This document shows positions 17,449 through 64,000 of a DNA stretch of 64,000 nt, one piece after another (within the stretch, counting starts at the first letter, position 1; each line of letters starts with the position of its first letter). The translations under genes were made by a program, and so were the position numbers. Source of the DNA: Verrucomicrobiota bacterium. Lineage in GTDB: Bacteria > Verrucomicrobiota > Verrucomicrobiia > CAIQCK01. The notes below the pieces were generated by a model, which was not told the DNA's origin, made no database searches, and worked only from the letters and a program-made list of their open reading frames with translations. Location of the stretch: contig JAPLTX010000045.1 in NCBI GenBank assembly GCA_026397915.1, positions 152,561-216,560 of the forward strand, in the 5' to 3' direction.

Positions 17449-17465
17449 ACCCGGATTCTCTCATC

Positions 17466-43169: not shown

Positions 43170-43242
43170 ATATGTTCATCCGCGAAGTGGATCGCACCGA
43201 CTTGGGCGCACGGTCATACTACGTCGCAATAAGTGAGCACGC

Positions 43243-43360
43243 TAAATCCCAAACCCGTCCCGATACTGCTTGCGGATGAGGGCGTCGGCTTCGGGGACAT
43301 TCTTGGCGCGCATCTTGGCGGCGTCCCATTCGATCCGCTTCTGCAGGCGCGTGGCAAGGC
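43243..43360 (-). pseudogene. 3'-terminal remnant (about 38 codons) of a Gfo/Idh/MocA oxidoreductase paralog
   Basis: Translates to LATRLQKRIEWDAAKMRAKNVPEADALIRKQYRDGFGI*, matching the C-terminus of 44736..46133 (…LATRLQKRIEWDAAKMRAKNCPEADALIRKHYRDGFGI*). Nucleotide identity is about 90% over ~115 nt; no upstream body. Confidence 0.7.
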
Positions 43361-43400
43361 TCTGCCAGCCGGCATTCCATCCATGAATTGAGGGCTTGCC

Positions 43401-44543: not shown

Positions 44544-44735
44544 TTGAGTTCTTCCTTGCAGCACTTTGCTAAATCACACTCTCGGCTACAATGAGGGGAA
44601 CGTTGCACACCACCTCTCTGTTGTCAAAGGCCAACCCTGCACGAGAAATGCCGAGCCAAAGAGAAACACAGGTTGGCGCCGGCCCTAGCCGCCATCGTCA
44701 CCGCTCTGGTTGTGAAAGCCGCCGAAAGTTTCCCG

Positions 44736-46133
44736 CTAGATTCCAAACCCGTCGCGGTAATGTTTGCGGATGAGGGCGTCGGCTTCGGGGCAGTTCTTGG
44801 CGCGCATCTTGGCGGCATCCCATTCGATCCGCTTCTGCAAACGCGTGGCGAGGTTGCCCACCAGCAACGCCTCGGTGTAGGGACCGGAGTAGGCAAAGCC
44901 GGCCTTGGCGTTCTGGGGCTTGCGCGCTTTGCAGGCATCCACCCATTCGGCGCGATGGCCGATGGAGCGCGCGAGGGTCTTGGGCGGACGCTTGAAGTCC
45001 TGCATCCGGCTCTCCGGGAGCAGTCGCGGCGCGCCACACCAGCCGCCGCAGAGCATGGAGCCTTTGTCGCCGATGAAGAGGATGCCGTTGTCGTCCAGCT
45101 CGCGGCCGGCTTCGAGGTCGGCGGGGCGGGCGGGTTTCTTGCCGCCGTCATACCAGTAGAGTTTGAGGGCGGGACGCCCGCCCTTGGCGGCAAACTCGTA
45201 GGTGATGATCTGCCACAAGGGATAGGATTCCTTCTTGAGCGGGCTGCTCTGGCATTCGGTGGCAACGGGCGCGCCGAGGTCGAGGGCGAAGAAGGCGGGG
45301 TCCATGTTGTGGATGGCCATGTCGCCCATCGCGCCAGTGCCGAAGTCGAACCAGCCGCGCCATGTCCTCGGAAGGTAGCAGGGATGATACGGCCGTTCCG
45401 GGGCCGCGCCGAGCCAGAGGTTCCAGTCGAGCTTCTCGGGAACGGGCGGCGTCTCGGTGGGGCGGTCGAGGTCCTGCGTCCAGAACTTGCCGGGACGGTC
45501 GCTCCAGCAATGGACTTCCTTGACGGTGCCGATGGCGCCGGCTTGGATCCATTCCTTGGTGAGGCGCAGGCCCTCGCTGGCGTGGCCGTTGTTGCCCATC
45601 TGGGTGACGAGGCCGGTCTTCTTGGCCATGCGGGTCATGACGCGCGCCTCCTCGATGGAGTGGGCCATCGGTTTCTCGACATAGACGTGTTTGCCGGCGC
45701 GCAACGCGGCCATGGTGATGGGCGCGTGCATGTGGTCCGGCGTGCCGATGACGACGGCGTCCACGTCCTTGAGCTTCTCCAGCATGACGCGGTAATCGGT
45801 GAACTTCTCGGCGTTGGGGAAGGTCTTGGCGGTGCGCTCGGCGTATTTCCAATCCACGTCGCAGAGGGCGACGATGTTCTGGCTGGAGATGGCCGGGTCG
45901 CGCAACACTCCCCCACCCTGCCCGCCGATGCCGATGCCCGCGACGTTGAGCTTCTCGCTCGGCGGAATGACGCCCCGGCCGAGGACGGAGCGCGGCACGA
46001 TCTGAAAGGCGAAGGTCGCGACCGTCGCGCGGCGAAGGAAACTGCGGCGGGAGATGGAGGAAGAGTTCTGTGTATTCATTGGTGGTGAAGTTTCGGGAAG
46101 CATTAGCGGAGCGGCAGGAGGATTCAATCCCAT
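44736..46133 (-). CDS. Tat-signal Gfo/Idh/MocA-family NAD(P)-dependent oxidoreductase
   Basis: RRSFLRRATVATFAF Tat motif; GIGIGGQGGG Rossmann; full-length family resemblance. ATG at 46133 sits in GGACTACTATG directly after the hairpin element. Confidence 0.85.
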   Translation of the reverse strand: MGLNPPAAPLMLPETSPPMNTQNSSSISRRSFLRRATVATFAFQIVPRSVLGRGVIPPSEKLNVAGIGIGGQGGGVLRDPAISSQNIVALCDVDWKYAERTAKTFPNAEKFTDYRVMLEKLKDVDAVVIGTPDHMHAPITMAALRAGKHVYVEKPMAHSIEEARVMTRMAKKTGLVTQMGNNGHASEGLRLTKEWIQAGAIGTVKEVHCWSDRPGKFWTQDLDRPTETPPVPEKLDWNLWLGAAPERPYHPCYLPRTWRGWFDFGTGAMGDMAIHNMDPAFFALDLGAPVATECQSSPLKKESYPLWQIITYEFAAKGGRPALKLYWYDGGKKPARPADLEAGRELDDNGILFIGDKGSMLCGGWCGAPRLLPESRMQDFKRPPKTLARSIGHRAEWVDACKARKPQNAKAGFAYSGPYTEALLVGNLATRLQKRIEWDAAKMRAKNCPEADALIRKHYRDGFGI

Positions 46134-46202
46134 AGTAGTCCTCACGCTCCGCGTGAGGTTTCGTTACAACACCGCATCACGCGGAGCGTGATGACTACTA
46201 TC
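46131..46202 (-). promoter_or_regulatory. Intercistronic palindromic hairpin element copy 2 (minus-strand reading: TAG-TCA-[TCACGCTCCGCGTGA]-20 nt loop-[TCACGCGGAGCGTGA]-GGACTACT-ATG)
   Basis: Perfect 15-bp inverted repeat 46142-46156/46177-46191. Spans from the stop of 46198..47379 to the ATG of 44736..46133. Stems are identical to copy 1, loops unrelated. Confidence 0.6.
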
Positions 46203-47379
46203 CCAGCATTGCCAGCGGGTTCTGTCGCGTCTTCAACGGGAACGTCACGTGCTGGCCGTTCAGCCGGTGCGACTCGAAGACGGCGCAAATCATTTCCACG
46301 ACCACGCGGCCATCGAGCGCGCTGCAAAGCGGCGCGCGGTTCTCGCGCATCGCCGCGATGAGGTCGCGGCCGGCGAACAGATGGCGGTTTCCAGTCTCCT
46401 TCACCTCGGCCAGCGGCTCCGGTTTCCCAAGGCCGGCGGAGCTGATCGGCACCCAGATGCGCGGCCTGCCCGGCAGGAACGGACTGCCTGCCAGAAGCTG
46501 CACCAACGGCTCCTTGTCCGAGCGCACGTCCACGATTCCTTTCGTGCCAACGAGCTGCAAACCGAACCCCGTGCCCTTCTCCCCTGCGCCTTGAACCGAA
46601 TCAAAGAACAACGGCACGCCCCGCTCCATCTCGAAGCGCGCGTGAACTTCGTTGCCCGCCAGCGGCCCGACGCCCTCGTCGCCATCCTTCACGTCGCCGC
46701 GCACGACCGGCCGCCCGCCCTGCAAGAGTGTCGCCGAACAAGCGAGCGGTTTGCCTCCGAAATAAGTCGCGAGATTCAACACATGCGAACCCAGCACCCA
46801 CAAGTCCAGTGCCCCGCCGCGCGAATCTTCCTTCCCCCGGGCGCGCAACTCCAATAACCGACCGATGCCGCCCTCCCTCAACAATCTCTCCACCACCGGC
46901 AACACCGGGTGATAACGCCCCACGTGCGCCAACGCCAGCTTCACCTGCCGTCGTTCGCATGCCGCCACAATCTCGTCCGCTTCCGCCGGCGTGCGGCAGA
47001 ACGGCTTCTCGCTGTAGATACCGCGCGCGCCCGCCTCCACCGCCGCGAGCGCCATGTCCCGATGTTCGTCAACAAATCGCGGCGCAATCGCCACGATGTC
47101 CGGCTTTGTCTCCGCGAGCATCGCGCGGTAGTCGGCACAACCTCTGGCGAGCTTGAGCTTCTTTACTTCCGCCGCCAGCCCCTTCTCGTCGGCGTCCGCA
47201 ACGCCAACAATCTCCGTCTCCGGCAGCCGCAACCACATCGTGTCCAGTCCGTGCCCGTAGTTGCCCCGCCCCGTGTGACCGATGACGGCGACGCGGAGTT
47301 TTCGAGCCGGCTCGGCCGCGCGGGAAGCGAGGGCGGCGCTGGAAGCGATGGAAGCAGCGAGAAATTCACGACGGTTCAT
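46198..47379 (-). CDS. Tat-signal Gfo/Idh/MocA-family oxidoreductase (second, divergent member)
   Basis: MNRREFLAASIASSAALA Tat motif; VAVIGHTGRGNYGH Rossmann. Confidence 0.85.
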   Translation of the reverse strand: MNRREFLAASIASSAALASRAAEPARKLRVAVIGHTGRGNYGHGLDTMWLRLPETEIVGVADADEKGLAAEVKKLKLARGCADYRAMLAETKPDIVAIAPRFVDEHRDMALAAVEAGARGIYSEKPFCRTPAEADEIVAACERRQVKLALAHVGRYHPVLPVVERLLREGGIGRLLELRARGKEDSRGGALDLWVLGSHVLNLATYFGGKPLACSATLLQGGRPVVRGDVKDGDEGVGPLAGNEVHARFEMERGVPLFFDSVQGAGEKGTGFGLQLVGTKGIVDVRSDKEPLVQLLAGSPFLPGRPRIWVPISSAGLGKPEPLAEVKETGNRHLFAGRDLIAAMRENRAPLCSALDGRVVVEMICAVFESHRLNGQHVTFPLKTRQNPLAMLG

Positions 47380-47409
47380 AGCAGGAGTCTCCTTTGCATG
47401 GGCGCGATT

Positions 47410-48609
47410 CTACTTTCCGCCAGTAAGCCATTCGAGATTGAAACGGGCGTAGTGCAGTTCATCCCAATAGTGTGTGCTGTCTTTGTTGCCGCGCTCGTAA
47501 ACAAGAGCCACGGTCCCGTCGTCGAGCACAGCAATGTCGGAGTAGGAAGAGGGATGCGGCCAGACAGTCCTCCCCGCTCCCCACACCGAACCTTCGTCCA
47601 CGCTCACGCGGACAGTGAGGTTAGTGCGGCCGTAGGGATGTTCTTCCCGGCGAAGGTTCGACGCCGGGCTGGAGAACAGCAGCCGCCTCTTGTCGTAGCG
47701 TTCCACCGCCCCGTGGCAGCGCGGTGTAATGAGTTCCTCCGCGCGGCGGAGCGGCCCCCAGGTTTCGCCGCCGTCGCGGCTGATCGCCACGCGATGGCGG
47801 AGGTTGGCCGGCGAGTCTGCGGAGCTTTCATCGCGACTGATGAGCATCACGTCGCCGTTGGCTTGCTCAACCAACTGGCATTCGCTCGTGTTCACGCCCA
47901 CCGTGCCGCCGAGCTTCCACGCCGCGCCATGATCGTCGCTATAGAAGCAATGTGCGAAGCTGCGCAGCCTGCCATTGCCGACGTCCTCGCGATGGCGCGC
48001 CGGCACGATGAGGCGGCCAGCCTTAGCGCCGGAGCGAAGCTGGATCATCGCATTGTCCGGCCCGACACCGTAGCGTTGATGCCAGCCCCGCGCCCACACG
48101 GCCGCGTGGCTTTTGCTGGACGGGCTGGCCCGATCGGGTCTTGCAGAGACGACTTTCTCCCATTCAGGCTTTGTGACCTGCGCGTGAATCGAAACCGGTC
48201 CCTGCCATGTCGCGCCGCTGTCGGCGCTGGTCATGCAGGCGAACTGCTTCTTGTCGCGCACGAAGAAGAGCCAGAGCTTTTTCGTGTCGCGGTCGAGGCC
48301 CACGGTGATGTCGGCACACACACGGTCGCCGTCGTCGAGGACGACTTGCTCAGCGCTCCATGTGCGCCCCTTGTCGCGACTGCGTTTGAGAACGATGTCG
48401 GTGTTGCCAACGTCTCCTGGCCCGTCGTTGCGCTTCTCAGCGAAGATGAGCAGGTCGCCGTTCGGTGCTTGGAGGATCGCCGGGATGCGGTAGTTCGGCT
48501 TGTTCTTCGGCGCGATGGGAAAGACGCATGTCGTTTCAAACAGCGGCTCGGCGGCCTGCAAGCTGCCAGCTAGCAAGAGAACCAAAACAGGGAGCAGCGC
48601 ACGCGTCAT
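47410..48609 (-). CDS. Exo-alpha-sialidase (GH33, BNR/Asp-box)
   Basis: YRIPAI (RIP motif) plus Asp-boxes SRDKGRTW, SADSGATW, SRDGGETW, SVDEGSVW. Signal peptide starts at internal Met 48609; the ORF extends to 48729. Confidence 0.85.
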   Translation of the reverse strand: MTRALLPVLVLLLAGSLQAAEPLFETTCVFPIAPKNKPNYRIPAILQAPNGDLLIFAEKRNDGPGDVGNTDIVLKRSRDKGRTWSAEQVVLDDGDRVCADITVGLDRDTKKLWLFFVRDKKQFACMTSADSGATWQGPVSIHAQVTKPEWEKVVSARPDRASPSSKSHAAVWARGWHQRYGVGPDNAMIQLRSGAKAGRLIVPARHREDVGNGRLRSFAHCFYSDDHGAAWKLGGTVGVNTSECQLVEQANGDVMLISRDESSADSPANLRHRVAISRDGGETWGPLRRAEELITPRCHGAVERYDKRRLLFSSPASNLRREEHPYGRTNLTVRVSVDEGSVWGAGRTVWPHPSSYSDIAVLDDGTVALVYERGNKDSTHYWDELHYARFNLEWLTGGK

Positions 48610-50609
48610 TGGCCCAGTCCGTGTTTCAAGATGAAGGCCAGCATCGCCTCGGACTCGAAGAAAGCCGGGTCGTGCTGATGGCCTTTGCCGGGGACAACGG
48701 TCAGTTCCATCGGCCCGCCGAGTGCGCAATAACGGTCGTAGATGACCTGGCTGTTCCTCTCCAACGGCACCACTTTGTCGGCGTCGCCGTGGATGTGGAA
48801 AACCGGAATCTTTGCCTTCGCAATCGGCGCGAGCCTCTCGATGGGATTGTGCTTCGCAAGCTGTGCGTCGAGGTCAGCCTCGCTCATGTGATACGCCGGC
48901 GCGGCGCGCTTGAAACCGGGGTAGCTCCGCAGGTCGCCAACAGGAAAGATGCCGGCGATGCACCGGACCCAATCCGGGTGGTCAGCGGCAAAGTTGTAGT
49001 GATTCAGCCCACCGCGGCTTTGCGCAAGCAGACACGCCTTCGGCAAGAGGCCGTAGGTTTTGGTGACATGGTGGTAGAATGCCGTGAACTGCTCCCGGCT
49101 CTTGGGATTGGCGAAGGTTTCGCCGACATAGATGCCGGCGACGTAGAAACCGTTCGTCAGCAGCCGCGACAACAGCCACGTGTTCACCGTGCTCGGATGA
49201 TGGCCAATCGTCGGCGCATACCAGACCCACGGCTTCGCGCCGCCGGGTGCGGGTTTGAACGGATGGATAACGAACGCCTCGCAGCCAGCGACCTCGAAGT
49301 TGTCGCGCTGCGCGCCGTAATTGGTGCGCTGGTCGAGCGCCGGCGTGTCTTTGCCATCGGTGAGCCATTCGAGATTGAAACGCGCGAGCGTGAGATAGGC
49401 GTAGCTCGTGGGCTTTTTCCTCTCAGCGTCTGCTTCGCGGCCGCGTTCGTAGAAGCAGAGGATCGTGCCGTCCGCCAGCACGGCAAGGTCGCTGTAGGCG
49501 CTGTAGCCGGGTTCCAGCGCCTTGTTCACCGGCCATGTCTTGCATTCATCGTAGCTGAGCTTGATGGAGAGGTTTCGCCGGTCGCGGCTGACGCCTTCCT
49601 TGGCCTTGCCGTCGCGGCGATCAAGGTTGTGCGGGTTCGCAAAGAGAATCCGGTTCTTGTCGTTGTCGGGCTTGCGACTATAGCGGACGATGCTCCCCAT
49701 GCAGATCGGATCCAGCAACTGGTCGTTGAAGACCGGCCTAGTCCAGCCGGTTGCGCCATCCTTGCTGTTGGTCTGGATGCGCCGGTGCGCGTCGGACTCG
49801 CTGCGGGCGTTGAGAAGCACGTTGCCATTCGTGAGTTGCACCACGACGGTCTCGTTCGGATAGCGATACGGTGCCTTGTCGGGAATGGCGATCTCGCCGC
49901 GCTGCCAGCTCTTGCCGTGATCGTCGCTGTAGATCGTGCTCGTCACCGACGGCCGGTGCGCGTGGTTGCCTGTGCCGAGCGACATCCAGATGGGGACTAC
50001 GAGCCGCCCCTTGTATGGGCCGTGCGTCAGTTGGATGCCGTGGTCGGGGCCGGTTGCGATGACTTTCCAATCGTAGTCCTTGCGGAATTGCTCGAACGTC
50101 GCGGTGATCTCGACCGGCTTTGACCACGTCACGCCCTCGTCGTCGCTGCGCATGTAGAAGCAGCGGCAATATTCGAGGCAGTAAAGAAAATGCACCGCGC
50201 CCGTCTCGCGGTCGGCGATGGCGACGGGATTGTTGGCCGTGTTATCGCCGGGCTTGTCGAGCTTCTGCGCAGCAGCGACGGGGTTGACCGGCAGTTCGCC
50301 CTCAACATGGACGATGCATTGCCGCGGCAACCACGTCTTTCCTCCGTCGGTGCTACGGCGCATCATCGTGTCAATCGGCCCCCAGTCGCCCTTTGCATTT
50401 TTGCGCGCCTCGCACCAAACGAGCACGGCGCCTTTCTTCGTCACCACGACGCCGGGGATACGGTAGAGCGCGTAGTCGTCCTTGCCGGACTCAAAGAGGT
50501 CAGTCTTCTCAACGAATGGCAGCGCCGCCCGGACGGACATAGCAAGCAGCGGAACCAGCGCAGCGGCAATACAAAGAAACAAGCCGCGGTAGAGAGAATT
50601 GATTTTCAT
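48606..50609 (-). CDS. GH33 sialidase fused to a C-terminal alpha/beta-hydrolase esterase domain (candidate sialate O-acetylesterase activity)
   Basis: N-terminal YRIPGV RIP motif and Asp-boxes [25 protein letters not shown]-terminal AQSRGG (GxSxG-like), HGDADKVVP, GKGHQ catalytic-triad-like blocks. Start at Met 50609 (MKINSLYRGLF...). Confidence 0.75.
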   Translation of the reverse strand: MKINSLYRGLFLCIAAALVPLLAMSVRAALPFVEKTDLFESGKDDYALYRIPGVVVTKKGAVLVWCEARKNAKGDWGPIDTMMRRSTDGGKTWLPRQCIVHVEGELPVNPVAAAQKLDKPGDNTANNPVAIADRETGAVHFLYCLEYCRCFYMRSDDEGVTWSKPVEITATFEQFRKDYDWKVIATGPDHGIQLTHGPYKGRLVVPIWMSLGTGNHAHRPSVTSTIYSDDHGKSWQRGEIAIPDKAPYRYPNETVVVQLTNGNVLLNARSESDAHRRIQTNSKDGATGWTRPVFNDQLLDPICMGSIVRYSRKPDNDKNRILFANPHNLDRRDGKAKEGVSRDRRNLSIKLSYDECKTWPVNKALEPGYSAYSDLAVLADGTILCFYERGREADAERKKPTSYAYLTLARFNLEWLTDGKDTPALDQRTNYGAQRDNFEVAGCEAFVIHPFKPAPGGAKPWVWYAPTIGHHPSTVNTWLLSRLLTNGFYVAGIYVGETFANPKSREQFTAFYHHVTKTYGLLPKACLLAQSRGGLNHYNFAADHPDWVRCIAGIFPVGDLRSYPGFKRAAPAYHMSEADLDAQLAKHNPIERLAPIAKAKIPVFHIHGDADKVVPLERNSQVIYDRYCALGGPMELTVVPGKGHQHDPAFFESEAMLAFILKHGLGQ

Positions 50610-50762
50610 AATGGCCTCAATTACTGGAAACGATACCACGCCGACTCAATCGGGAAGAACTGCTAAAGATGGAGCTAATCGCAGCAAGAGTATCCACGCT
50701 CAGCGCGGCAGCGAATGCCGTTGCCATAAACCAATTCGACGTCCGCATAGGATGTTCCTTCT

Positions 50763-52028
50763 TCAGAATCCGAGCGATTGTTTCACGACAGCCATCGTTG
50801 CGGCCTGCCGCTGCTCCACAAACGCCATCGCCTTCTTCACCTTCGCCAGCGCGGCGGGATAGTCGGCGTGGATTGTGAACAGTGTCTCCGCCATCTTCGT
50901 CGCGGGCGTGGAATCGAACTCCAGCAGCCATTCCGGCAGACCAATGTCGCGGAACATCCAGCATTTCGGGCTGTGGAACTCCGAGTAGGTGTGGATGACC
51001 GGCGTGCCGTTGGCCAGAGCGATGATGAGCGAGTGCGGCTCGTGACAAATGGCAGTGTGGGCGCGCGCGAAGACCGATGCGGCTTCATCGGCGTTCCAGA
51101 AGGCGTCAAGGTTGACGACGTGCTTGCGGATGTCCTCCGGCAGCGGGTCGTGGAGGAGCCGCTTGTTGTGCTCCATCTCCTTCTTCACTTCGGGCGCAAT
51201 GAGCACCTTGAAGCCGGTTCGTTTCACCCAACGCGTGATCAGGTCGCGCTACACGGCCGCGCGGCGCTCGTCGTCGGCGATTTGTTGCGGTGAAGGGTGC
51301 AACGGGTTGAGGCTGGGCACTCGTTTGTCGTCCACGCCCGGGAGCTTGGCAGTGTTGGTTCGAAGCTGGATCGTGATAAACTTTCGATCTTCCAATCCGA
51401 GCTTCTTCATCGTGGCCAGCCCGCGTTCGTCGTCGCGCACGTCAATGCCGAAGCAACCGTCGGGACCGAACTCCAGCACCGGCGGTTTCAGTCCGGCGTT
51501 GCGGAGAATGTTGAGGGTCTTGGTTTCCCGACAGTAGATGAACGCCGCGCCGTTGAGCAGCGCCATGCGCTCCGTCGCGCCCTTGCCTTCGACCATGCTG
51601 GGAAAGTAGGACTGGCCATAGAGGCCGTATGGCTTGCCAGCTTTCCGGCAGAACTCCATGAAACTCGTGTCCTGACCCATGCCGGAGTTTCGGATGAACA
51701 GGTCACAGCGGCGGATGGCCTCGCGCAATCGTTCATCCCGTTCGCTCTTGCCGGTCAGACTGCCTTGCAGGAACTCCACCTTGGGGAAACGGCGGCGCAG
51801 CATGGCGGCGACGCGCTCGTCGAGTTTCATCGCCCACACGACGACGCGCACATCCGGCAGATGCTGCTCGATGATCCGTAACGTGCCCGGGGTGTGGCCG
51901 ATGTCGCCAATATTGACGGTGTCCCAAGCGGACTGGAGCAGGATCGTCTTCGGTTTCGCCGACGCGGCAAGAGCGGAGACGCCGAGCGCGGCGCTGAGAG
52001 TTGAAATGAAATGACGTCGAGTAGTCAT
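50763..52028 (-). pseudogene. Polysaccharide pyruvyl-transferase-like protein with Tat-type signal, interrupted by an in-frame TAG (51246-51248)
   Basis: ORFs 51249..52193 (from Met 52028, MTTRRHFIS...) and 50763..51227 are in the same frame, separated only by ...RRAAV*RDLITRWVKRTGFK.... N-terminal ILLQSAWDTVNIGDIGH resembles the pyruvyl-transferase fold. Confidence 0.55.
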
Positions 52029-53215
52029 GGTAGTGGTGGCAATTTTGCACCGCAATAGACGGCGCGGTAGCGGTTGTCGTCGAAGGCGAAGTGGAGCCAT
52101 TGCTTGTCCTTGCTCACAAAACCATCGGGATAGTTCATCCGTCCTTTCGGGCCGTCGCAGGATTCCGGCAGAAGCACGCGGCGGTAAGGCCACGTCTTCA
52201 TGCCGTCAAAGCTGATCCAAAGTGCCATCGGGCTGCGGTGTTTCGGATTCGGATTGTGCAGTAACGCGACGCTATCGCCACCGAGCGGATAGAGCGTCGC
52301 TTTCGATCCGGGGTTCGGGATGTCGGACTTCGTCCCGAACTCCGGCCAAGTGCGACCGCCGTCCTTGGACTCGGCGTAATAGAGCACGCCACCGAGCCGG
52401 TCGCCGCGGATGATCATGGCGATGCGTCCGTCGCTCAGTTCGACGATGTTGTTCTCGGCCCAACCATGATAGCGGTCGTCGGAGGTGAGGCGGATGTTGC
52501 CGTGCTCGGTCCATGTCTTGCCACCATCGCTGCTCATGAGCACGCCGTTGCGCGGGTTGCTAACGTAGTGGGCCAGCGCCTTGTGCCACGGCTTTTCCTC
52601 CGGCGACGGAGGCGGCGTGCCGGCCGGCGGGCCGAGGTAATGCTGGAACGGGATCAGAATGCGTCCATCGCGCGTGACGATGTGGTTGCGGATGAAGGTG
52701 AAGTTCGCCAACCGGCCGGGCATCGGCTGCGGCTTGCTCCACGTGCGGCAACAATCGTCGCTGAACATCATCCATGACCGCCAGTCACGCCCCCACGTCT
52801 GCGAGTGCGTCGAGAAGAACAGCGTGCAGCGGTTGCCACGCACCATCAGTTCCGTCGGGCCTTGGCCGCTGGTCTTGCCTTCGCGCGGAAAGCCGATGTC
52901 CACGGGTTGCAGCGGCGACCATGTCTTGCCGCCGTCGGTGCTGCGCGTCAGGCCGGTGTAGTTCTTCGGCGATGGCTCGAAGTCGTCGCCCGCGAGCATG
53001 AACAACACCCACGAGCCGTCAGACAACTCCCGCAGCGTCGTGTCGCAGACCAGCTTGTTCGGCGTCTTGCCATCATAGGCGATGGTCGTGCGGTCTTGCC
53101 TTGCATCCTCGGCGGCCTGCTTCTCCCAATCGGCTGCGGAGACCGCGACACAAACAAGACCGGTCATGACGCTCTCGGTAAGGTGACTCAGCAAAAGGTT
53201 GTGCCGGATGTTCAT
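52025..53215 (-). CDS. BNR/Asp-box repeat glycosidase (sialidase-like beta-propeller)
   Basis: Asp-boxes [32 protein letters not shown]. Start at Met 53215 (MNIRHNLLL... signal/TM). ATGA overlap with the downstream pyruvyl-transferase-like gene. Confidence 0.75.
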
Positions 53216-53385
53216 GGTCTGACTTGGCGGTGTTTCTCTCCAAAAGTCCGAAGCAATACCACGCCGACTCTGCCGGAAAGAACTGCGAGTAGTAAAGCCC
53301 TTCGTAACGACATGCGCCGTCGTGCTGGTGCGGTCCGCGTTTTTCTCCCTTGCACAACGAATCCGCCGCGTCATCATACGCTCCG

Positions 53386-54933: not shown

Positions 54934-54960
54934 GCCAGCCATACCGCTTGCAGAAACAGC

Positions 54961-57069: not shown

Positions 57070-57086
57070 TTAGTTCCACCTTGGGG

Positions 57087-57890
57087 TTACGGGCCAATCT
57101 TGTAGTGACGACGGATGGAGCGATCCACGAGGCCGGGGCAGACCGCACACAGCCAGCTCATACAGCGTAGCCACCACGGGACATAAACCTCGACAGGCTT
57201 CTCACGAACCGCACGGACGATGGCTTGCGCCACACGCGTGACCGGCAACCGTGAGGAACCGTGATCGGGATAATCAGCGGGCAGACGGGAACGGTCCAGG
57301 TTGCGCGGCATGTCCGTATCAATCACGCCGGGATAGACCGTGGTGAAATGGATATTCTCCGCGGCGAGTTCGATCCGCAAACTCTCCGTCAGGCCGGTGA
57401 CTGCCCACTTCGTCGCGGCATAAACCGCCATGTAAGGCAGACCCCGTCGGCTCACGCCGGAGGCGACATTGATGATGTGTCCCCCGCCCTGCCGAGCCAT
57501 GAGCGGCGCGGCAGCACGGATGGAGTGGACGACCGCCCAGAAGTTCGTGTCCATCAGATGCTCCATGTCATCCAACGGCATCGCAAGCAATGGCGCCATC
57601 CGCAACAAGCCGGCGTTATTGATGAGCACGTCAAGGCGTCCGAAGTGTCGGGCCACCGACTCCACCATCGCGCGCACCTGCTCCGAATCCTCCACATCAG
57701 CCACGTGAATGAAAGCGTCCGTGTTGTGGCGCGTCTTCAGCTCCAGCGCCAATCCCTCCAGACGATCCTTCCGCCGTGCAACCAGCGCGAGCCGGCATCC
57801 CGCTCGGGCCAGTTCGTGCGCCGTGGCCGCGCCAATCCCCGCCGAAGCGCCGGTGATGAGAACGACAAGAGAAGAGAGTTTCGCCTGCAT
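57087..57890 (-). CDS. SDR-family oxidoreductase
   Basis: ITGASAGIGAATA Rossmann, NNAG, YAATKWAV (YxxxK). Confidence 0.88.
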   Translation of the reverse strand: MQAKLSSLVVLITGASAGIGAATAHELARAGCRLALVARRKDRLEGLALELKTRHNTDAFIHVADVEDSEQVRAMVESVARHFGRLDVLINNAGLLRMAPLLAMPLDDMEHLMDTNFWAVVHSIRAAAPLMARQGGGHIINVASGVSRRGLPYMAVYAATKWAVTGLTESLRIELAAENIHFTTVYPGVIDTDMPRNLDRSRLPADYPDHGSSRLPVTRVAQAIVRAVREKPVEVYVPWWLRCMSWLCAVCPGLVDRSIRRHYKIGP

Positions 57891-58126
57891 CCCTCACACT
57901 CCATCACAACACCCGCCCGACCTCAAGGGCGCGTTGATACTGCCAATCCCTTTGCCTACACTGCGCGCACATTCAACTCGTTGTCGTGCCTCTGCATCAC
58001 GCTTGCAACGTCCAAGCGGGTTTTGACTTTCTGCTGAACTGTGGTTTGTTTGCACAACATTGTTCAGACTACGACTCATTCGACCACACGAGTTAGTAAA
58101 CGGCGCACTGACGGGAACATAACCAT

Positions 58127-59552
58127 GAGAACCCGAATTGCGTCGCTCTGGCCGTTGATCATTTGTTTCGCTCTTGTCTGGCCGCTGGTTTTCTGTCTCG
58201 CCGATCCGTGTTCTACCTGTCGAGGCACGGGCACCATTACATGCCCGCAATGCGGAGGAAGCGGGATTTCCCGCTGGACAACCATTCGCGGCCAGCGCGC
58301 GGCCTACGGCTGCGAGAATTGCGGCGGCATCAGCGGCGATCCAATGAGAGGCACGGGACGGCAAGGTCGTGGGCGCGTTCGTTGTCCAACTTGCGGTGGT
58401 TCGGGACAAACGCAGTCACAGTCATCCCCAGTCAACAATCCCTATCCGTCGCCCGACATGGAAGCGGAGCGACAGAGACAGTTGGAGGAACAGCAGAAGA
58501 AGGAACAAGAGGAGGCGAAGCGCAAGCGCGAGGAGTTCGAGAAGACGAAGCAGGAAGTCTTAAAGAGCATGAAGGGGATCGCGGAGAACGGCCTCGGCCT
58601 CAAAGATGTCCGCACCACGGACGCCCTTGGACTGAAGGGAATCGGAGACGCAAAGGTCGGCACCGCGGGGTTGAAGGGGATGGACGACAGCGGGTCGCGA
58701 CCGTCCGTTGGTTCCTCAACGGTTGATCTCCGGCACTTGGACCCAAACAAACCCATCACAGTTGATCCGAACGTCGTGAAAGGTCAGGAACGGGTCTTCC
58801 CGGTTCAAACCGACCCGGGGACGTTCAAGAACGCCAATTACAACAAAGGCTTTGACGCCATCCTGCGTGGCGATCCTGATTCTGCCGTGCTGTGTTTCGA
58901 GCAGGCGAGCAAAGAGCGCCCTGGTGATCCTCTGATTCGTAACGCGCTGCTGCTGGCCAAAGGCCTTGTCAACGTGCACCGACAACGGGAAGAGGACAAC
59001 CGGAAGAAGGCGGCGGCGCAGCCCGCCTCGAATGACGACAGCGCCTTGAAGTTGGCCATTGATGCAACCCCTGCCATGGAGCAGGGCGACTACGACACCG
59101 CCCTTCGCATGCTGAAACAAGCGCAAGCCATCAGCCCGAACAACCCCAACATCGCCAACATGCTGCGCTTTGTTCAAGGAGTGAAAGCGAAAGACGACAG
59201 CGCCATGAGCTATGCCGCTGATGCATGCAACTTCGTCAAACCAGGCCAATACAACACCGCCCTTCGCATCCTGAAACAGGCGCAAGCCATCAGCCCGAAC
59301 AACACCAACATCGCCGACACGATTCGCTACGTCGAAGGACAGAAGGCCAAAGACGACAGCGCCCTGAAGCTGTCCAGAGAGGCATATTATGCACTTGGGG
59401 AAGGCGACCTCGACAGGGCGTTTCGCGCATTGAAACAGGCACACGACATTTTGCCGAACGATCGGGGTTTTGCCGATGCACTCAACTTTGTTGAAGGGGC
59501 GGCAATGGAACGCGCGAATGCGGCCAAGAAGACGCCACCCGACAGAAAATAA
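58127..59552 (+). CDS. Signal/anchor + DnaJ-type CxxCxGxG zinc-finger domain + coiled coil + three ~38-aa helical repeats (ALRxLKQAQAISPNNxNIA...KAKDDSA)
   Basis: CSTCRGTGTITCPQCGGSG, CENCGG, CPTCGGSG = four CxxC(x)G motifs as in the DnaJ central domain; EQQKKEQEEAKRKREEFEK coiled coil. The ORF opens at 58041; Met 58127 precedes the hydrophobic segment. Confidence 0.6.
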
Positions 59553-59555
59553 GCC

Positions 59556-60446
59556 ATGAAGACATCCCGCAAAGCCGCAGCATTGTTTGTTCTAGCCTTG
59601 GTAATCGCAGCAGCGACAACACCGCGAGCCACCGCACAATCAGCCAATGACGCTTTCCGACAGGCGGTGGCTGAGCATCAGAAATCGCCGTTGGCCGATA
59701 CAACGGCGAGAATCATCAAGCTGGCGTCGGCGATGGAACAGTTGCCGCCGATTCCGGAGGAGGCGCGGCGACATTTCGTGATGGGCGGGACGATCTTCAA
59801 GGAAGCCAAGAGTGCGGAGAATTTCTCGCTGGCCACGCGCGAGTTCCTGGAAGCCGCAAAGCTGGCTCCGTGGTGGGCTGAGGCACGCTATAATCTGGCA
59901 CTCACCGAGGAAGCGGCGGGAAATTATTCTGGCGCGATGGCTGACTTGAAACTCTACCAGTTATTCAAGCTTCCCGACGCCGAGGCGAGAGCCGCTCAGG
60001 ACAAGATCTACGCGCTCGAGGCCAAGCAGCAGATGAAAGCTTCGGGTGATGCGGCCAAAGCAACGGAAGAAGGGCAAGCCAAAGATTGGATCGCAAAGCT
60101 GAACGGAGCGAGATTCTCGTTCACAAAACGTTTTGGCGCGAACCCCCCAGAATTTACACTTTTATACACCATCGGCGTGAACAATGGGGAAGTTGTCTTT
60201 GGTGCAACGCCGATCCAGTATTCACCTGAGATGATGAGAAATAACCGGGCAAGATTCAGGAAATACAACGAATCGGGCCGTGGCGTCATCCGTGGGCATA
60301 GCTTCACCATAAGGCCGTCGGGTGACGCATCAGAACTCTTTTGGGAGTTCGAGATTGATGATGATGGCCAAGCAGTGAGGGTTGTTCGAACTTCGAATCC
60401 ACCTTTGCAATTTGGCACGGAAGCAATCTTCCACCGTGAAAAATGA
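59556..60446 (+). CDS. Secreted TPR-like helical-domain protein, paralog 1 of 3
   Basis: Signal peptide; shared N-domain (AFRQAVAEHQKSP...IKLASAMEQLPPIPEEARRHFV...APWWAEARYNLAL...LKLYQLFKLPDAEARAAQDKIYALEAKQ); unique beta-rich C-terminus. Confidence 0.65.
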   Translation: MKTSRKAAALFVLALVIAAATTPRATAQSANDAFRQAVAEHQKSPLADTTARIIKLASAMEQLPPIPEEARRHFVMGGTIFKEAKSAENFSLATREFLEAAKLAPWWAEARYNLALTEEAAGNYSGAMADLKLYQLFKLPDAEARAAQDKIYALEAKQQMKASGDAAKATEEGQAKDWIAKLNGARFSFTKRFGANPPEFTLLYTIGVNNGEVVFGATPIQYSPEMMRNNRARFRKYNESGRGVIRGHSFTIRPSGDASELFWEFEIDDDGQAVRVVRTSNPPLQFGTEAIFHREK

Positions 60447-60490
60447 GTCTCCCGATTTTATCGGCGTTAGCAGCTTGGTTTTTTCGCAAT

Positions 60491-61390
60491 ATGATGAAAA
60501 CACTGCCATCACTCACCGCTCTCGGATCGCTCGTTCTCACCGTTTCGTTATCGGCGCAAGACCCCAGCACCAAAGCCGCCTCACCATTCCAGCAAGTGGT
60601 CGCAGACTATCAAAAGTCGCCATCGGATGAAGCGGTGGCAAAGGTCATTAAGCTGGCGGCGGCGATGGAACAGTTGCCGCCAATTCCGGAGGAGGCGCGA
60701 CGACACTTCGTGCGCGGCGGCGCGTTGTTCAAGGACGCGAAGAATGCCGACGACCTTTCGCAGGTCGTGGATGAATTCAAGGAGGCGGTTCGTCTAGCTC
60801 CGTGGTGGCCGGAGGCGCGTTACAACTACGCTTTGGCACAGGAGGCCGCTGGCCAATATCCCGGTGCTGTCGCCAATCTGAAGCTGTATCAACTGTTCAA
60901 GCTTCCCGACGCCGAAGCGAGAGCCGCTCAGGACAAGATCTATGCGCTCGAAGCCAAACAGGAAAAGATGCTGAAGGATGTAGGAGTGAAGGAAGCGGCG
61001 CGTCGATCGGTTCAAGGGTTGGCGGGCCGCTGGACGTGGCACAGCGACAAATGGCTAGCCAACGTGTATTTTGGCTACCAAATTACGGCGGACGGAAATC
61101 AAATCGCTGTTACTTGGACGGAATACTCGGGTGAATCTGTGGCGAATATGTCGGGGAAGCACTCGTTCAAGGGGACGATGAACGGCCGCGAAATCAACGG
61201 GGCATATTCGATTGACCGCTCCATGTGGCAGGGAGGCAAGGTTTTCACCTATCCGTTTCGCGGGACCATTAGCGAGGACGGAAACGAAATTCGTCTGAGG
61301 TATAAGACCATTGACATCACCGGCGCGACTGGGCTCAGACCCGATGGTTGGCGGGAATGGGACGAAGAAGCGGTGTTGAAGCGACAATAA
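60491..61390 (+). CDS. Secreted TPR-like helical-domain protein, paralog 2 of 3
   Basis: Same N-domain; a 66-nt stretch (60895-60960) is nearly identical to 59950-60015. The ORF opens at 60443, overlapping the previous gene; MMKTLPSL at 60491 gives a clean signal peptide. Confidence 0.65.
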   Translation: MMKTLPSLTALGSLVLTVSLSAQDPSTKAASPFQQVVADYQKSPSDEAVAKVIKLAAAMEQLPPIPEEARRHFVRGGALFKDAKNADDLSQVVDEFKEAVRLAPWWPEARYNYALAQEAAGQYPGAVANLKLYQLFKLPDAEARAAQDKIYALEAKQEKMLKDVGVKEAARRSVQGLAGRWTWHSDKWLANVYFGYQITADGNQIAVTWTEYSGESVANMSGKHSFKGTMNGREINGAYSIDRSMWQGGKVFTYPFRGTISEDGNEIRLRYKTIDITGATGLRPDGWREWDEEAVLKRQ

Positions 61391-61393
61391 GCA

Positions 61394-62248
61394 ATGAAAA
61401 GGAAAGCTCAGGACGCAATCGTCAGGGTGTTCCTGTCATTAACCTTCGCCTTGGCTGTGACGGCGACAGCACAGTCAACCAACGACGTCTTCAAACAGGC
61501 AGTGACAGAGTATCAGCAACGCCCCACTGACGAAAATGCTGCGAAGGTCATCAAGCTGGCTTTGGGCATGAAGCCAGCTCCCGCTATTCCGGAGGAAGCT
61601 GAGAAGTTCATTGCGCGCGGGCAGGCGGCGGTTGAAGCAGCCAAAGAACCCGCCGACTTCAAAGCGGCTGCCGCCGAGTTTGAGAAGGCCGTGCTGGCGG
61701 CCCCGTGGGTTGCAAACGTGTATTACAACCTGGGCGTGGTGCAAGACAAAGCTGGGGACTACACCGGCGCGATCCGCAGTCTGAACCTCTACCTGCTGGC
61801 TGCCCCGAATGCTGACGACACGCGGGCGGTCAAGTCGCTCATCTATAAGATCGAATTCAAACAGGAGAAAGCGGCGAAGGATGCAAGAGCGAAGGAAGCG
61901 GCGGCCGCCCAAGAGGCCAGCAAGCCAAAGACCGGCGAAGAACTCATCCGAAGCCTGAACGGGGTCAGATACATTGGAAACCATGTGCAAGACCGGCTCG
62001 CTGGCGAGTGGGATAACGCCTTGGAAATCCGCGGCAATCAAATGATCTCGAGCGTGATTTCCAACGGTGAATTCAAGGAGAGCTTCAACGGAACGATGCC
62101 GGAAAAAAGCCGCACGCCATTGAATGGCCGCGAATTCAACCACTGGATGGGGGTTGGGACGATCAGCGAGGACGGTGCCACCATAACTCTTCGCATGATC
62201 AATCCGAGCAACAAGCTCGTCGTTGAAACATACCGGCGTATCCGATAA
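61394..62248 (+). CDS. Secreted TPR-like helical-domain protein, paralog 3 of 3 (more divergent)
   Basis: Signal peptide; N-domain alignable (VFKQAVTEYQQRP...VIKLALGMKPAPAIPEEAEKFI...APWVANVYYNLGV); C-terminal GTISEDGATITLR motif shared with paralog 2. Confidence 0.6.
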   Translation: MKRKAQDAIVRVFLSLTFALAVTATAQSTNDVFKQAVTEYQQRPTDENAAKVIKLALGMKPAPAIPEEAEKFIARGQAAVEAAKEPADFKAAAAEFEKAVLAAPWVANVYYNLGVVQDKAGDYTGAIRSLNLYLLAAPNADDTRAVKSLIYKIEFKQEKAAKDARAKEAAAAQEASKPKTGEELIRSLNGVRYIGNHVQDRLAGEWDNALEIRGNQMISSVISNGEFKESFNGTMPEKSRTPLNGREFNHWMGVGTISEDGATITLRMINPSNKLVVETYRRIR

Positions 62249-62307
62249 CGAAACCAAGTTTTGAACGATCCCTCCGACCCGCTTAAGGAAGGACGGCTCG
62301 TCGCACT

Positions 62308-63003
62308 TCAAATGTCGGTTGACCCGGCTCGGAGATGGGTGGACGGGTTAATGTTTGACGGAGTTCTCGCCGTGCTGACGATGGTGTCGCTGAGTTGTTG
62401 AGTTGGAACATCTCCCAGCGGGCCTTTGAAGCAGGAGACGAGAATTGGAAGATGGCAGTTAGCAGTTTGGAGTGGGGGCGGGACGGACGCGGCTCGGATG
62501 ATAATGTGAGCGGGAGCGGGCAGAACGGGCAGAACAGCGAGAATATGCGAAAATAGGCCATTTTCTTCGACTTGGAGGGTTTCCACGCCGTCGCAAGAGA
62601 TCTTCTCGCCGCTGCAAGGGTCAGCCGCGCCGCCGTAAGATTCCGCTGCGCCGCCGCACGCGTCCGCCGGGCCGTTGCAAGGGGTGCTCGTGCCGTCGCA
62701 AGGGTCGTCCGGGCGGATGCAACGGGTGTCTGACCCGCTGTAAGAGTCAGCCGCGCCGATGTAATGGTCCGGCGGACGGGTGTAAGCTATCTCCGGGCGG
62801 ATGCAAATACTCTCCGGGGCAATGTAAGCATCCTTCGGGCGGATGTAAGGGTTGTCCGGGCCGATGTCACAAACCTCCGGGCGCGAGTGCCTATTTCCAT
62901 CCGTAGCAACAGTCGCTGGCGGGTGGTTGCGAGGTCTATGGCCGCGAAACCGCCGTTCAGACGGATCGTGAGACGGGCGCGGCGCGCCTGTCGGATCATT
63001 CAC
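62308..63003 (-). CDS. Cys/Tyr-rich heptad-repeat protein (13 tandem [Y/C]-[I/T]-[R/G]-[P/A]-x-[D/E]-x units) encoded by a 21-nt tandem DNA repeat
   Basis: YIRPKDA YIAPESI CIRPEIA YTRPPDH YIGAADS YSGSDTR CIRPDDP CDGTSTP CNGPADA CGGAAES YGGAADP CSGEKIS CDGVETL. Minus-strand third-codon positions are GC-rich (genome-like), whereas the overlapping plus ORF 62764..63069 has mixed third positions. 29 nt downstream of the SIAE stop. Confidence 0.5.
   Translation of the reverse strand: MNDPTGAPRPSHDPSERRFRGHRPRNHPPATVATDGNRHSRPEVCDIGPDNPYIRPKDAYIAPESICIRPEIAYTRPPDHYIGAADSYSGSDTRCIRPDDPCDGTSTPCNGPADACGGAAESYGGAADPCSGEKISCDGVETLQVEENGLFSHILAVLPVLPAPAHIIIRAASVPPPLQTANCHLPILVSCFKGPLGDVPTQQLSDTIVSTARTPSNINPSTHLRAGSTDI
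62584..62895. repeat. About 15 tandem copies of a degenerate 21-nt repeat (consensus CCGGGCGGATGTAAGNNTNNTC)
   Basis: Visible periodic CGGGCGGATGCAA / CGGGCGGATGTAA units; lies inside the 62308..63003 CDS. Confidence 0.8.
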
Positions 63004-63031
63004 GGCCCAAACGAAACGATACGGGCTGGCC

Positions 63032-64000
63032 TTATTTCTTCAGCCGCACGAGCACTTTCAGTTGCTTGACGACGTATTGGGAGGCGTTGTGGTTGAAGGT
63101 CCAGTCGAGAGTGCGTTGGCCGCTTGCGCGGCCGTCGCTGTTGCCGATGCCGAGGTCGGCGTTCTGGCCGGACTTCCAGTTGTTGAAGGCGAAGATGGTT
63201 TGCTTGGCGTTGAAGTTGTGGACCTGCATGGAACCGTAGCCATCCTCGGGGTCCGAGATCTGGTCGCCGAGATCCCAGACGGCGTCGGAGGCGTTGGGAA
63301 CCTTGGCGGTGTTGAGCGGGCCGTAGTTGTGCGGGAAGAACTCGATGTTGCCGGCGAGGTCGTTGCCGGTCTTGATGCGAGGGTCGCTGGAGAGGACGTT
63401 CATGTGGCTGACCTGGGTCTGGAACTTCGCCTTGGAGGCGACGGTGGGCACGCCGAGCTTGGCGAGGTCGGGAGTGAAAGCGTCCATCGAGACATAGACC
63501 CACTGCGTCGGCTCGCCTCGCTTGCGCAGCTCCAGGAAATAAGCGACGCGGTCAATCGGCCCGGCGATCTGCGCGCGGCGGTCCACGTCGTAGGTGATGT
63601 CGCGCTTGGCTTTGGCGAGGTCGAGGGCGTAAAGCAGTTGGTAGTCCTTCGCCTCGGAAACCTTCAGGGAGAGGATGTCCATCTGCGGCACTTTGCCGCT
63701 GCGGAACGCGGAGGCTGGCAGGCCTTCCTTGTTCATCAGGTTCGGGACGGCGGATTTGTCCCATGCGAAGCGCATCGCCGCCGGCTCTTTGATCTTGTCG
63801 GACGAAAGCACGACCGAGTCGCCTTCGATGGCCGCGTCGGCCTTGGTCCAGTCGGTTTCCTTGCCGATGATCTCGAACCAGTTGAGCGGCTTGGCGTCGC
63901 GGGAAACGAGGCCGCTGCCGATGTTGTCGAACCGGATGCGAATCTTGTCGCCCTCGATGGCCATCGCCTTGAAGGTCGGGCCGGAAGCGACAAGGTCGCT
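63032..64000 (-). CDS. Sialate O-acetylesterase (SIAE family), C-terminal part; 5' end beyond window
   Basis: Reading frame is open to nt 64000. ...SDLVASGPTFKAMAIEGDKIRIRFDNIGSGL...MRFAWDKSAVPNLMNKEGLPASAFRSG matches the conserved SIAE C-terminal region, followed by an extra ~200-aa domain. Confidence 0.7.
   Translation of the reverse strand, partial: SDLVASGPTFKAMAIEGDKIRIRFDNIGSGLVSRDAKPLNWFEIIGKETDWTKADAAIEGDSVVLSSDKIKEPAAMRFAWDKSAVPNLMNKEGLPASAFRSGKVPQMDILSLKVSEAKDYQLLYALDLAKAKRDITYDVDRRAQIAGPIDRVAYFLELRKRGEPTQWVYVSMDAFTPDLAKLGVPTVASKAKFQTQVSHMNVLSSDPRIKTGNDLAGNIEFFPHNYGPLNTAKVPNASDAVWDLGDQISDPEDGYGSMQVHNFNAKQTIFAFNNWKSGQNADLGIGNSDGRASGQRTLDWTFNHNASQYVVKQLKVLVRLKK

Follow-up and report, generated by a model that had tools for sequence, protein, structure and literature searches.

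A GH33 sialidase fused to an esterase-like alpha/beta-hydrolase domain in environmental Verrucomicrobiota and Planctomycetota: a predicted two-headed glycan-trimming enzyme

Sialic acids are naturally shielded from sialidases mainly by O-acetylation. The O-acetyl groups block these enzymes and are removed by sialate O-acetylesterases, and those reviewed in PMC10017367 are all of the SGNH fold; the same review reports a sialidase/O-acetylesterase fusion from Bifidobacterium bifidum (Ashida et al. 2018, cited in PMC10017367). A sialidase and a de-O-acetylase in one polypeptide are, as published for B. bifidum, already known. Here we describe gene D (48606..50609, minus strand, 667 amino acids (aa)), which joins a GH33 sialidase to an alpha/beta-hydrolase domain and lies in a stretch of 64,000 nucleotides from a bacterium of the Verrucomicrobiota (assembly GCA_026397915.1, contig JAPLTX010000045.1, positions 152,561 to 216,560; guanine plus cytosine (G+C) content about 62%), all of which was analysed and is called the window; its closest relatives place it in the Verrucomicrobiia. 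What is new is the fold of the putative esterase, its setting in free-living bacteria of the Planctomycetes-Verrucomicrobia (PVC) group, and the large, unstudied family, fused to carbohydrate modules, from which it comes.

The B. bifidum fusion enzyme, which we take to be the one named SiaBb1, has an esterase of the SGNH type. It shares with D the union of a GH33 exo-alpha-sialidase and an esterase in one polypeptide, the dual activity of D being predicted; it differs in that D ends in an S9/DLH-like alpha/beta-hydrolase with no sequence relation to SGNH enzymes, and in that B. bifidum is a gut actinobacterium whereas D belongs to free-living PVC bacteria. The role that we propose for this hydrolase would also be that of NanS from Escherichia coli, EstA from Bacteroides, the Phocaeicola vulgatus enzyme 7PZG and mammalian SIAE (CE20), but these are all SGNH-fold proteins, while the domain of D is a classical alpha/beta-hydrolase without homology to them. 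We know of no non-SGNH sialate O-acetylesterase.

D is laid out as a Sec signal peptide (residues about 1-28), a six-bladed GH33 propeller (about 30-417), a linker (about 418-434) and the alpha/beta-hydrolase domain (about 435-667), with Pfam matches to BNR_2 (E=1e-22), Peptidase_S9 (E=2.6e-6) and BNR_3. In the PDB it matches NanI of Clostridium perfringens with E=5.6e-37, residues 31-391 aligning to solved GH33 sialidases, and it carries a YRIP motif and three Asp-boxes. Alignment to NanI chain 2BF6, with a chain offset of 242 that was checked on the RIP arginine, places the GH33 catalytic residues within 49494..50462 (minus strand, as for every residue of D given here): Arg50 of the RIP motif (50462..50460) falls on NanI R266, Asp75 (50387..50385) on D291, Glu253 (49853..49851) on E539, Arg269 (49805..49803) on R555, Arg331 (49619..49617) on R615 and Tyr372 (49496..49494) on Y655, the NanI numbers being those of the published structure. 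The head has the arginine triad (R50/R269/R331), the nucleophile Tyr372 with its partner Glu253 and the acid/base Asp75 of a GH33 enzyme, and when 27 fusion proteins were aligned five of the six residues were invariant and R331 was at least 90% conserved. D resembles NanI and the Micromonospora viridifaciens sialidase (1EUR/1EUS) in its fold, the six catalytic residues and the Asp-boxes, but it is only 23-28% identical to them, has no carbohydrate-binding module or inserted domain, and has the esterase-like domain instead.

A first-pass annotation of the window had proposed the fusion and, as a check on it, a structural model of D. The full-length AlphaFold2 (AF2) model reached a predicted local distance difference test score (pLDDT) of 85 and a predicted template modelling score (pTM) of 0.65, and divides D into a propeller, a short linker of low confidence (pLDDT below 50 at residues 423-426) and a hydrolase domain. 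Foldseek superimposes this model on 1EUS with a target-normalised template modelling score (TMt) of 0.86 and a root-mean-square deviation of 2.7 Å, and its best 50 PDB matches are all GH33 sialidases or chimeras with one.

The hydrolase domain (48609..49307, minus strand) was analysed with Pfam, an AF2 model and Foldseek. Taken in isolation it matches Peptidase_S9 weakly (E=4e-7), and also Hydrolase_4 and Abhydrolase_2; modelled alone with 44 homologues, it reached a pLDDT of 95.9 and a pTM of 0.93. Its predicted catalytic triad has the canonical Ser-Asp-His order, with Ser531 (in AQSRGG, 49019..49017) as nucleophile, Asp611 (in HGDADKVVP, 48779..48777) as acid and His644 (in GKGH, 48680..48678) as the histidine. 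The nucleophile elbow A-Q-S-R-G is of the small-x-Ser-x-small type, and its serine aligns to the HSMGG motif of LC-Est1C. Asp611 was chosen as the acid because the neighbouring Asp609 varies, and the HGxxD motif of related carboxylesterases agrees with this choice. The three residues are invariant in 27/27 fusions, and so are their equivalents in 45 mostly standalone homologues of 50-83% identity.

A Foldseek search of the PDB with the hydrolase model gave 1631 matches with E<=0.001, the best 50 of which are alpha/beta-hydrolases; these are generic and assign the domain to no specific family, and phmmer of the domain against the PDB reached a best E of only 9.5e-4. Structural neighbours include TT1662, YjfP and a cold-active esterase. 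The domain has its core fold and triad topology in common with 8WT1, DPP4/8/9, 1UFO, YjfP (9BD4) and LC-Est1C (3WYD), but at 13-21% identity, where assignment by likeness stops at 'serine hydrolase'. An SGNH-type sialate O-acetylesterase was considered for this part of D and rejected, as Pfam finds no GDSL or SASA match and the fold is that of a classical alpha/beta-hydrolase; Pfam and Foldseek thus agree with the first-pass annotation that the partner of the sialidase is not an SGNH enzyme. On the sequence and the model together, the C-terminal domain is predicted to be a compact, esterase-like alpha/beta-hydrolase with a Ser-Asp-His triad.

Homologues of the fusion were sought among 5.8 billion proteins and in a scan of GTDB. 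The protein search gave over 45 clusters with members 640-690 aa long; at 60-89% identity these align with 95% or more of D, and they match both BNR_2 and Peptidase_S9. The closest relative, from a groundwater metagenome-assembled genome (MAG; JBAYFL01 in GTDB, locus L010), is 93% identical in amino acids, and the fusion is also found in the genome records of the cultured isolates Prosthecobacter fusiformis and P. debontii and in Pirellulaceae MAGs; the GTDB scan recovered the fused form in L010-L019 and a partial copy in L020. Across the 27 aligned fusions the linker and both domains are equally conserved, with a mean column identity of 70%. Database labels of the homologues vary between 'exo-alpha-sialidase', 'dipeptidyl aminopeptidase/acylaminoacyl peptidase' and 'alpha/beta hydrolase family protein', and our literature searches turned up neither a paper on a fusion of GH33 with an alpha/beta-hydrolase, nor one on the sialidases of Prosthecobacter, nor experimental work on these proteins. 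These results show that the fusion of sialidase and hydrolase, one gene in many independent genomes, is genuine and conserved. The first-pass annotation had named two findings that would overturn its proposal, a triad missing on alignment, and domains that are separate genes in relatives and joined here by a sequencing artefact; both fail, because the triad is invariant and the two domains form one gene in many genomes.

The GH33 part of D belongs to an orthogroup that is unusually conserved, at 58-76% identity, in Verrucomicrobiota and Planctomycetota, and that also occurs without a fusion partner. One of its members, P0071 (70% identity), has an N-terminal SGNH/GDSL esterase. This protein reproduces the architecture described for B. 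bifidum, and suggests that the alpha/beta-hydrolase of D is a non-homologous replacement for an SGNH esterase.

The ATG of the next gene, C (47410..48609, minus strand, 399 aa), overlaps the TGA stop of D (ATGA). C has a Sec-type signal peptide, shares about 30% identity with the GH33 part of D, and matches BNR_2 (E=6.9e-27) and, over its full length, the M. viridifaciens sialidase (E=4e-37). It carries the motifs YRIP (R41), PGD (D66), SECQ (E243), ISRD (R259), YGRT (R328) and SYSD (Y356) and five Asp-boxes; in the alignment to the M. viridifaciens sialidase, R41/R259/R328 form the arginine triad, Y356 and E243 the nucleophile pair, and D66 is the acid/base. Because both proteins have Sec-type signal peptides and full sets of GH33 residues, we take D and C, from their sequences, to be exported and catalytically competent GH33 enzymes, and the two sialidases with RIP motif and Asp-boxes noted in the first-pass annotation are both upheld.

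An exact look-up of D in the assembly index gave no record, and its genomic context was studied in relatives. Gene neighbourhoods were compared by tblastn of the window proteins against 80 species-representative loci with a D-type sialidase, with at most 10 kb of flank each. A C-type sialidase directly follows a D-type sialidase in about 12 of the 80 loci, in both phyla and whether the esterase is fused or not (L010-L013, L019, L023, L025, L028, L029, L036, L056, L089), and the protein P0050 (780 aa), with two BNR_2 stretches, appears to hold a D-type and a C-type sialidase fused in one chain. From this comparison we conclude that the D-C pair is the conserved unit and that the other genes around it are a lineage-specific neighbourhood, and the dedicated sialoglycan cluster of the first-pass annotation shrinks to this pair. 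C probably differs from D in the linkage, or in the nonulosonic acid, on which it acts.

Taking these data into consideration, we hypothesize, with moderate confidence, that the hydrolase of D is a carbohydrate O-acyl esterase that cooperates with the sialidase; we are less certain of the narrower claim that it is a sialate-specific O-acetyl esterase. On this view D would be exported by the Sec route and would trim glycans with two heads. Its esterase head would remove O-acyl groups, most probably O-acetyl, from a terminal sialic acid or its immediate neighbourhood, and the tethered GH33 head, as an exo-alpha-sialidase of the retaining type or else a hydrolase that acts on a related nonulosonic acid, would next cut the exposed ketosidic bond; C, translationally coupled to D, would act as a second, divergent sialidase. 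The substrate of the esterase and the order of action are the parts of this model that we infer.

Several observations weigh against this hypothesis. The closest structures to the hydrolase are generic, being S9 catalytic domains and assorted esterases with query-normalised scores (TMq) of 0.65-0.77 and the low identities given above, so that the substrate is assigned by guilt by fusion, and the alpha/beta family has no characterised member. The geometry between the domains has no confident prediction, given the low full-length pTM and the poorly predicted linker, and the model lends no support to cooperation of the two active sites. Neither partner is exclusive: D-type GH33 domains also occur with partners that are not esterases, either FAD_oxidored plus Golvesin_C or a Peptidase_M14-like segment (P0048), and some fusion partners of the alpha/beta domain have no relation to sialic acid. 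Finally, the neighbourhoods of three standalone alpha/beta-hydrolase homologues show no conserved partners and no sialic-acid context.

The fusions with FAD_oxidored are numerous. Many Planctomycetota proteins of about 950-1170 aa combine a D-type GH33 domain with FAD_oxidored (PF12831, E=7e-99), often together with Golvesin_C (examples are P0091, P0078, P0083, P0102 and P0108), and in L005 (7001-9091) FAD_oxidored and Golvesin_C are joined in a gene of their own, some 1 kb upstream of the gene for the sialidase-esterase; we know of no function described for a sialidase-flavoenzyme fusion. A PLDc_2 (phospholipase D-like) gene adjoins the fusion gene in Prosthecobacter fusiformis (L002:8330-9781), and another (L008:8822-10549) adjoins a standalone alpha/beta-hydrolase homologue in a Gemmataceae MAG, perhaps by coincidence.

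The most serious competitor of our hypothesis, unlikely in our view though deserving real weight, is that the hydrolase is a general carbohydrate O-acyl esterase, merely tethered to the sialidase and acting on other sugars of the same polymer, such as Gal, GalNAc, Man or the uronic acids of microbial or algal exopolysaccharides. A profile search with the alpha/beta family, which covered 1.84 billion representatives, gave 1,581 clusters (at 50% identity) with E<=1e-10 and 628 with E<=1e-30, mostly from the PVC group. Sixty-eight members are multidomain, and their partners include SASA (7/68), whose name stands for 'sialic acid-specific acetylesterase', DUF1080 (6/68), Laminin_G_3 (4/68), Lipase_GDSL_2 and ThuA (three each) and BD-FAE (two), with single cases of GH106, GH123_N and DUF4838/GH20b (P0256); P0244 is an example of a SASA fusion, and P0280, just below the threshold of the scan, is a further GDSL fusion. 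Fusion to such varied carbohydrate modules (SASA, SGNH, BD-FAE, GH106 rhamnosidase, GH20-like, GH123_N, DUF1080, ThuA) speaks for a general esterase, as do the standalone state of most family members, with no sialidase nearby, and the domain of D itself, which is about 50-70% identical to most of the listed standalone forms and has no special insertion. Two points tell against it: the GH33-hydrolase unit is tightly conserved in two phyla, at 60-93% identity over both domains, and the same sialidase has independently gained an SGNH esterase, which suggests a specific functional coupling. FGE-sulfatase was seen among the other fusion partners of the family, and P0262 is another member of the family alignment (A3).

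Judged from the sequences of its partners, the alpha/beta family behaves as a carbohydrate-esterase module does, which speaks for our main hypothesis too, and it is a candidate for an unrecognised carbohydrate-esterase family. A bolder version of our hypothesis, which we put forward tentatively, as possible rather than probable, is that the domain of D founds a new alpha/beta-fold family of carbohydrate esterases (about 1,600 clusters), in which the GH33-fused members are sialate-specific de-O-acylases for positions or acyl groups to which SGNH esterases are poorly suited, such as 4-O- or 7-O-acetyl groups, or the acyl groups of bacterial nonulosonic acids. If so, D would be a self-contained enzyme for stripping sialoglycans that resist both esterases and sialidases.

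The first-pass annotation had also read 44736-64000 as a sialoglycan cluster in which two Tat (twin-arginine translocation)-exported dehydrogenases, A and B, might oxidise a sugar or glycoside in place of the NanA/NanK/NanE route, and this we now regard as improbable. D and C do lie among six co-directional, nearly gapless minus-strand genes in the order F-E-D-C-B-A (53212..44736), with ATGA stop/start overlaps at F/E, deduced from the coordinates, and at D/C, where the overlap was read in the sequence; A, C and D in fact start later than their longest open reading frames (ORFs) would suggest. The same tight, co-directional arrangement is found in L010, whose D is the 93%-identical relative, and this speaks for a cluster. 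The exact order is however seen only there among the 80 loci. In L011/L001, where D is 89% identical, an extra gene parts E from D, and three genes, encoding a sensor kinase, a response regulator and a protein of the metallo-beta-lactamase fold, lie between C and B-A. Orthologues of A and B stand near a sialidase only in the two closest relatives, L010 and L011; elsewhere an A-like gene occurs in only three loci (27-46% identity), a B-like gene in none, and a CE20-like gene in one further locus (L089). Housekeeping genes surround the fusion gene in Prosthecobacter, in a Pirellulaceae MAG and on another long contig, and the neighbourhoods of three distant fusion genes share no conserved partners.

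The genes A (44736..46079, minus strand, 447 aa, its start set by a 447-aa orthologue) and B (46198..47379, minus strand, 393 aa) encode Gfo/Idh/MocA oxidoreductases with Tat signals, the leaders SRRSFL and NRREFL being read from the translations, so that this part of the first-pass annotation stands. For an oxidative route it can be said that NanOx and YjhC are sialic-acid oxidoreductases of the same superfamily (PMC10017367) and that no nan genes lie in the window. Identity with these enzymes was nevertheless rejected, because A matches them (6Z3B, E=5e-10; 6O15, E=2.8e-9) over the Rossmann region only and B matches neither. A resembles instead, by sequence, a glycoside 3-dehydrogenase of the BT2158/8TDF type: it scores E=8.3e-144 against the NCBIfam profile BT_2158_fam, and E=3.5e-109 and 2.6e-107 against 8TDF and 8TDH. 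BT2158 of Bacteroides thetaiotaomicron shares with A the Tat leader, the Gfo/Idh/MocA fold and similarity over the full length; A differs in that its 480 bits lie under the equivalog cut-off of 750 and in having no adjacent DUF1080 3-keto-disaccharide hydrolase. The Tat-exported BT2158 has been proposed to act in the periplasm, where it would turn disaccharides into 3-keto-disaccharides for the DUF1080 hydrolase BT2157 to split (PMC8121099). Since sialic acid is deoxy at C3 and has no hydroxyl there, the 3-dehydrogenase chemistry of A would fit the underlying glycan and not sialic acid; moreover, no DUF1080 partner gene is found next to A or within F-E-D-C-B-A, nor is a lyase partner present. 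B has a Pfam match to GFO_IDH_MocA (E=4.7e-14), a best PDB match of only E=7e-12 and no close characterised relative.

That nan genes are missing from the window is correct as far as it goes: no nanA, nanK or nanE domain was found in about 50 ORFs scanned across it, and neither nan genes nor a transporter for sialic acid adjoin the fusion gene in L001, L002, L004 or L005. PVC genomes generally disperse the genes of a pathway. Sialocatabolic nan genes can be clustered or at separate loci, and candidate nan-linked sialic-acid transporters have been described in Planctomycetes and Verrucomicrobia (PMC8461474), so the absence of nan genes from the window says little. The sialic-acid cluster with an oxidative route is, in our reading, mostly a chance neighbourhood, and A, B, E, F and the distant CE20 gene do not demonstrably act in the same pathway as the sialidases.

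Less probable again is that the C-terminus of D is an S9-type serine peptidase, so that D would trim sialoglycopeptides. Peptidase_S9 is the best Pfam match, an S9 carboxypeptidase and the catalytic domains of DPP4/8/9 are the top Foldseek matches, and elsewhere in the GH33 orthogroup one protein carries the Peptidase_M14-like segment mentioned above; but the resemblance is confined to the generic alpha/beta core at 13-21% identity, 1UFO, YjfP, the cold-active esterase and S-formylglutathione hydrolase reach equal scores, and it is to carbohydrate modules that the family is fused. An S9 prolyl-oligopeptidase was rejected, since the standalone homologues, of 260-280 aa, have no 7/8-bladed gating propeller and the propeller of D is a GH33 catalytic domain, and for this reason we do not regard the domain as a defined S9 peptidase. 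It is very improbable that the esterase would instead free the sialic-acid carboxylate from sialyl lactones or carboxyl esters that stop binding by the arginine triad: the argument for this is purely chemical, GH33 enzymes requiring a free C1 carboxylate and the alpha/beta-hydrolase fold including lactone and uronoyl esterases, and no sequence or structural likeness to those esterases emerged. An assembly or frameshift artefact has practically no chance of explaining D, as the same single ORF recurs in dozens of independent assemblies and isolates, with a conserved linker and no stop or change of frame.

Upstream of D lie the two remaining genes of the group. F (52025..53212, minus strand, 395 aa) is a BNR_2/Asp-box propeller protein (BNR_2 E=2.5e-29), as the first-pass annotation had it, with three Asp-boxes and, in place of a RIP motif, LRE; its match in the PDB is weak and partial (1EUR, E=1.2e-10). 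In this alignment F keeps the segments ENxxVEL..GR and RS..S.D, and it has a C-terminal NYPDG. From its sequence F could be a diverged sialidase-superfamily protein and not a non-catalytic BNR protein, and its place next to E is conserved in L010 and L001.

E (50763..52028, minus strand) encodes a protein of the pyruvyl-transferase fold (Pfam PS_pyruv_trans) with the Tat-type leader MTTRRHFIS, and an in-frame TAG at 51251..51249 breaks its coding sequence. Both orthologues, in L010 and L001 (7435-8700), have a tyrosine at this codon; the uninterrupted orthologue matches PF04230 with E=7.6e-19 over positions 1-275 of the 280 of the profile, and the 162 codons of E after the TAG are still about 89% conserved. 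The TAG reflects a sequencing error, or else a nonsense mutation of very recent date. A Tat leader is odd for a pyruvyl-transferase fold; the pyruvyl donor, phosphoenolpyruvate, is cytoplasmic. E-like genes occur in two further loci, directly downstream of a D-type sialidase in L039 (11240-12355) and 4 kb off in L053. Pyruvate ketals, like sialosides, are carboxy-ketals, and by this analogy it is conceivable that E is linked to the sialidases, for example as a depyruvylase.

At the edge of the window, about 12.4 kb from D and with nine unrelated ORFs between them, lies the 3' part of a gene (63032..64000, minus strand) whose reading frame is open to the window end, its SGNH catalytic domain being beyond. 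Residues 2-101 match 9EGA (E=5.2e-20), 9H4U (E=1.1e-19) and 7KMM (E=2e-12), and the matched part is the C-terminal beta-sandwich of CE20/SIAE-family esterases, so that the gene likely belongs, on this match, to CE20. It is homologous in this part to XacXaeA (7KMM), Fl8CE20_II (9H4U) and PpCE20_II (9EGA), but differs in some 220 extra C-terminal residues (63032..63700) that continue past the usual end of the family and match nothing in Pfam or the PDB. The three structures are of CE20 enzymes; XacXaeA, the bacterial founder of the family, is a xyloglucan acetylesterase, the characterised bacterial enzymes named besides it are two deacetylases, none of them known to act on sialic acid, and mammalian SIAE belongs to CE20 but is without the inserted ancillary domain (PMC8245568, PMC12313940). 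The first-pass annotation had called the gene a SIAE-family sialate O-acetylesterase; the family tail is indeed there, but the family name fails to establish sialate specificity, given the characterised bacterial CE20 enzymes just named.

The nine ORFs between F and the edge gene are of the opposite strand or of unrelated function: a hypothetical protein, a fused membrane/spermidine-synthase-like protein, a short-chain dehydrogenase/reductase (SDR), a tetratricopeptide-repeat (TPR) protein, three paralogous TPR-like proteins and two unannotated ones. The three paralogues (59556..62248, plus strand; 296, 315 and 284 aa) are exported, stand in tandem after a 503-aa TPR/zinc-ribbon protein, between the sialidase genes and the CE20 gene, and have a TPR-like N-terminal half in common. 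At the other end of the window, 1..19319 is a separate glycan-degradation region with SGNH/GDSL proteins, a GH65/GH95-like protein, two large DUF6259 proteins, an SDR, an MR_MLE enolase-superfamily enzyme, a beta-helix plus SGNH protein, WbsX-like proteins and a GHL6-like protein; a weak DUF1080-like ORF (16477..17448) within it is about 28 kb from F-E-D-C-B-A. Downstream of A by 1.4 kb, a 120-bp copy of the 3' end of A (43242..43361, minus strand) translates to 40 aa that are 90% identical to the L001 orthologue. Between A and this copy is an exported 387-aa ORF (43401..44564, minus strand) without a Pfam match, whose GTSxxAP motif, seen by eye, presumably recalls sedolisins; local G+C falls to 55%, and the absence of the ORF from L001 suggests that a gene was inserted here and the end of A duplicated in the process.

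The comparative data are a warning against treating gene neighbourhoods in PVC bacteria as pathways, since the apparent oxidative cluster dissolves beyond one genus-level lineage. D itself is a good candidate for biochemical characterisation, though its existence would not surprise a specialist in carbohydrate-active enzymes, and, were its predicted activities confirmed, it might be of use in glycoanalytics as a single enzyme that strips modified sialic acids. If the hydrolase is indeed the esterase that we propose, the strategy of de-acylating and then cleaving would have evolved at least twice, and the domain would point to an unrecognised family of carbohydrate esterases that is abundant in environmental Planctomycetes and Verrucomicrobia.

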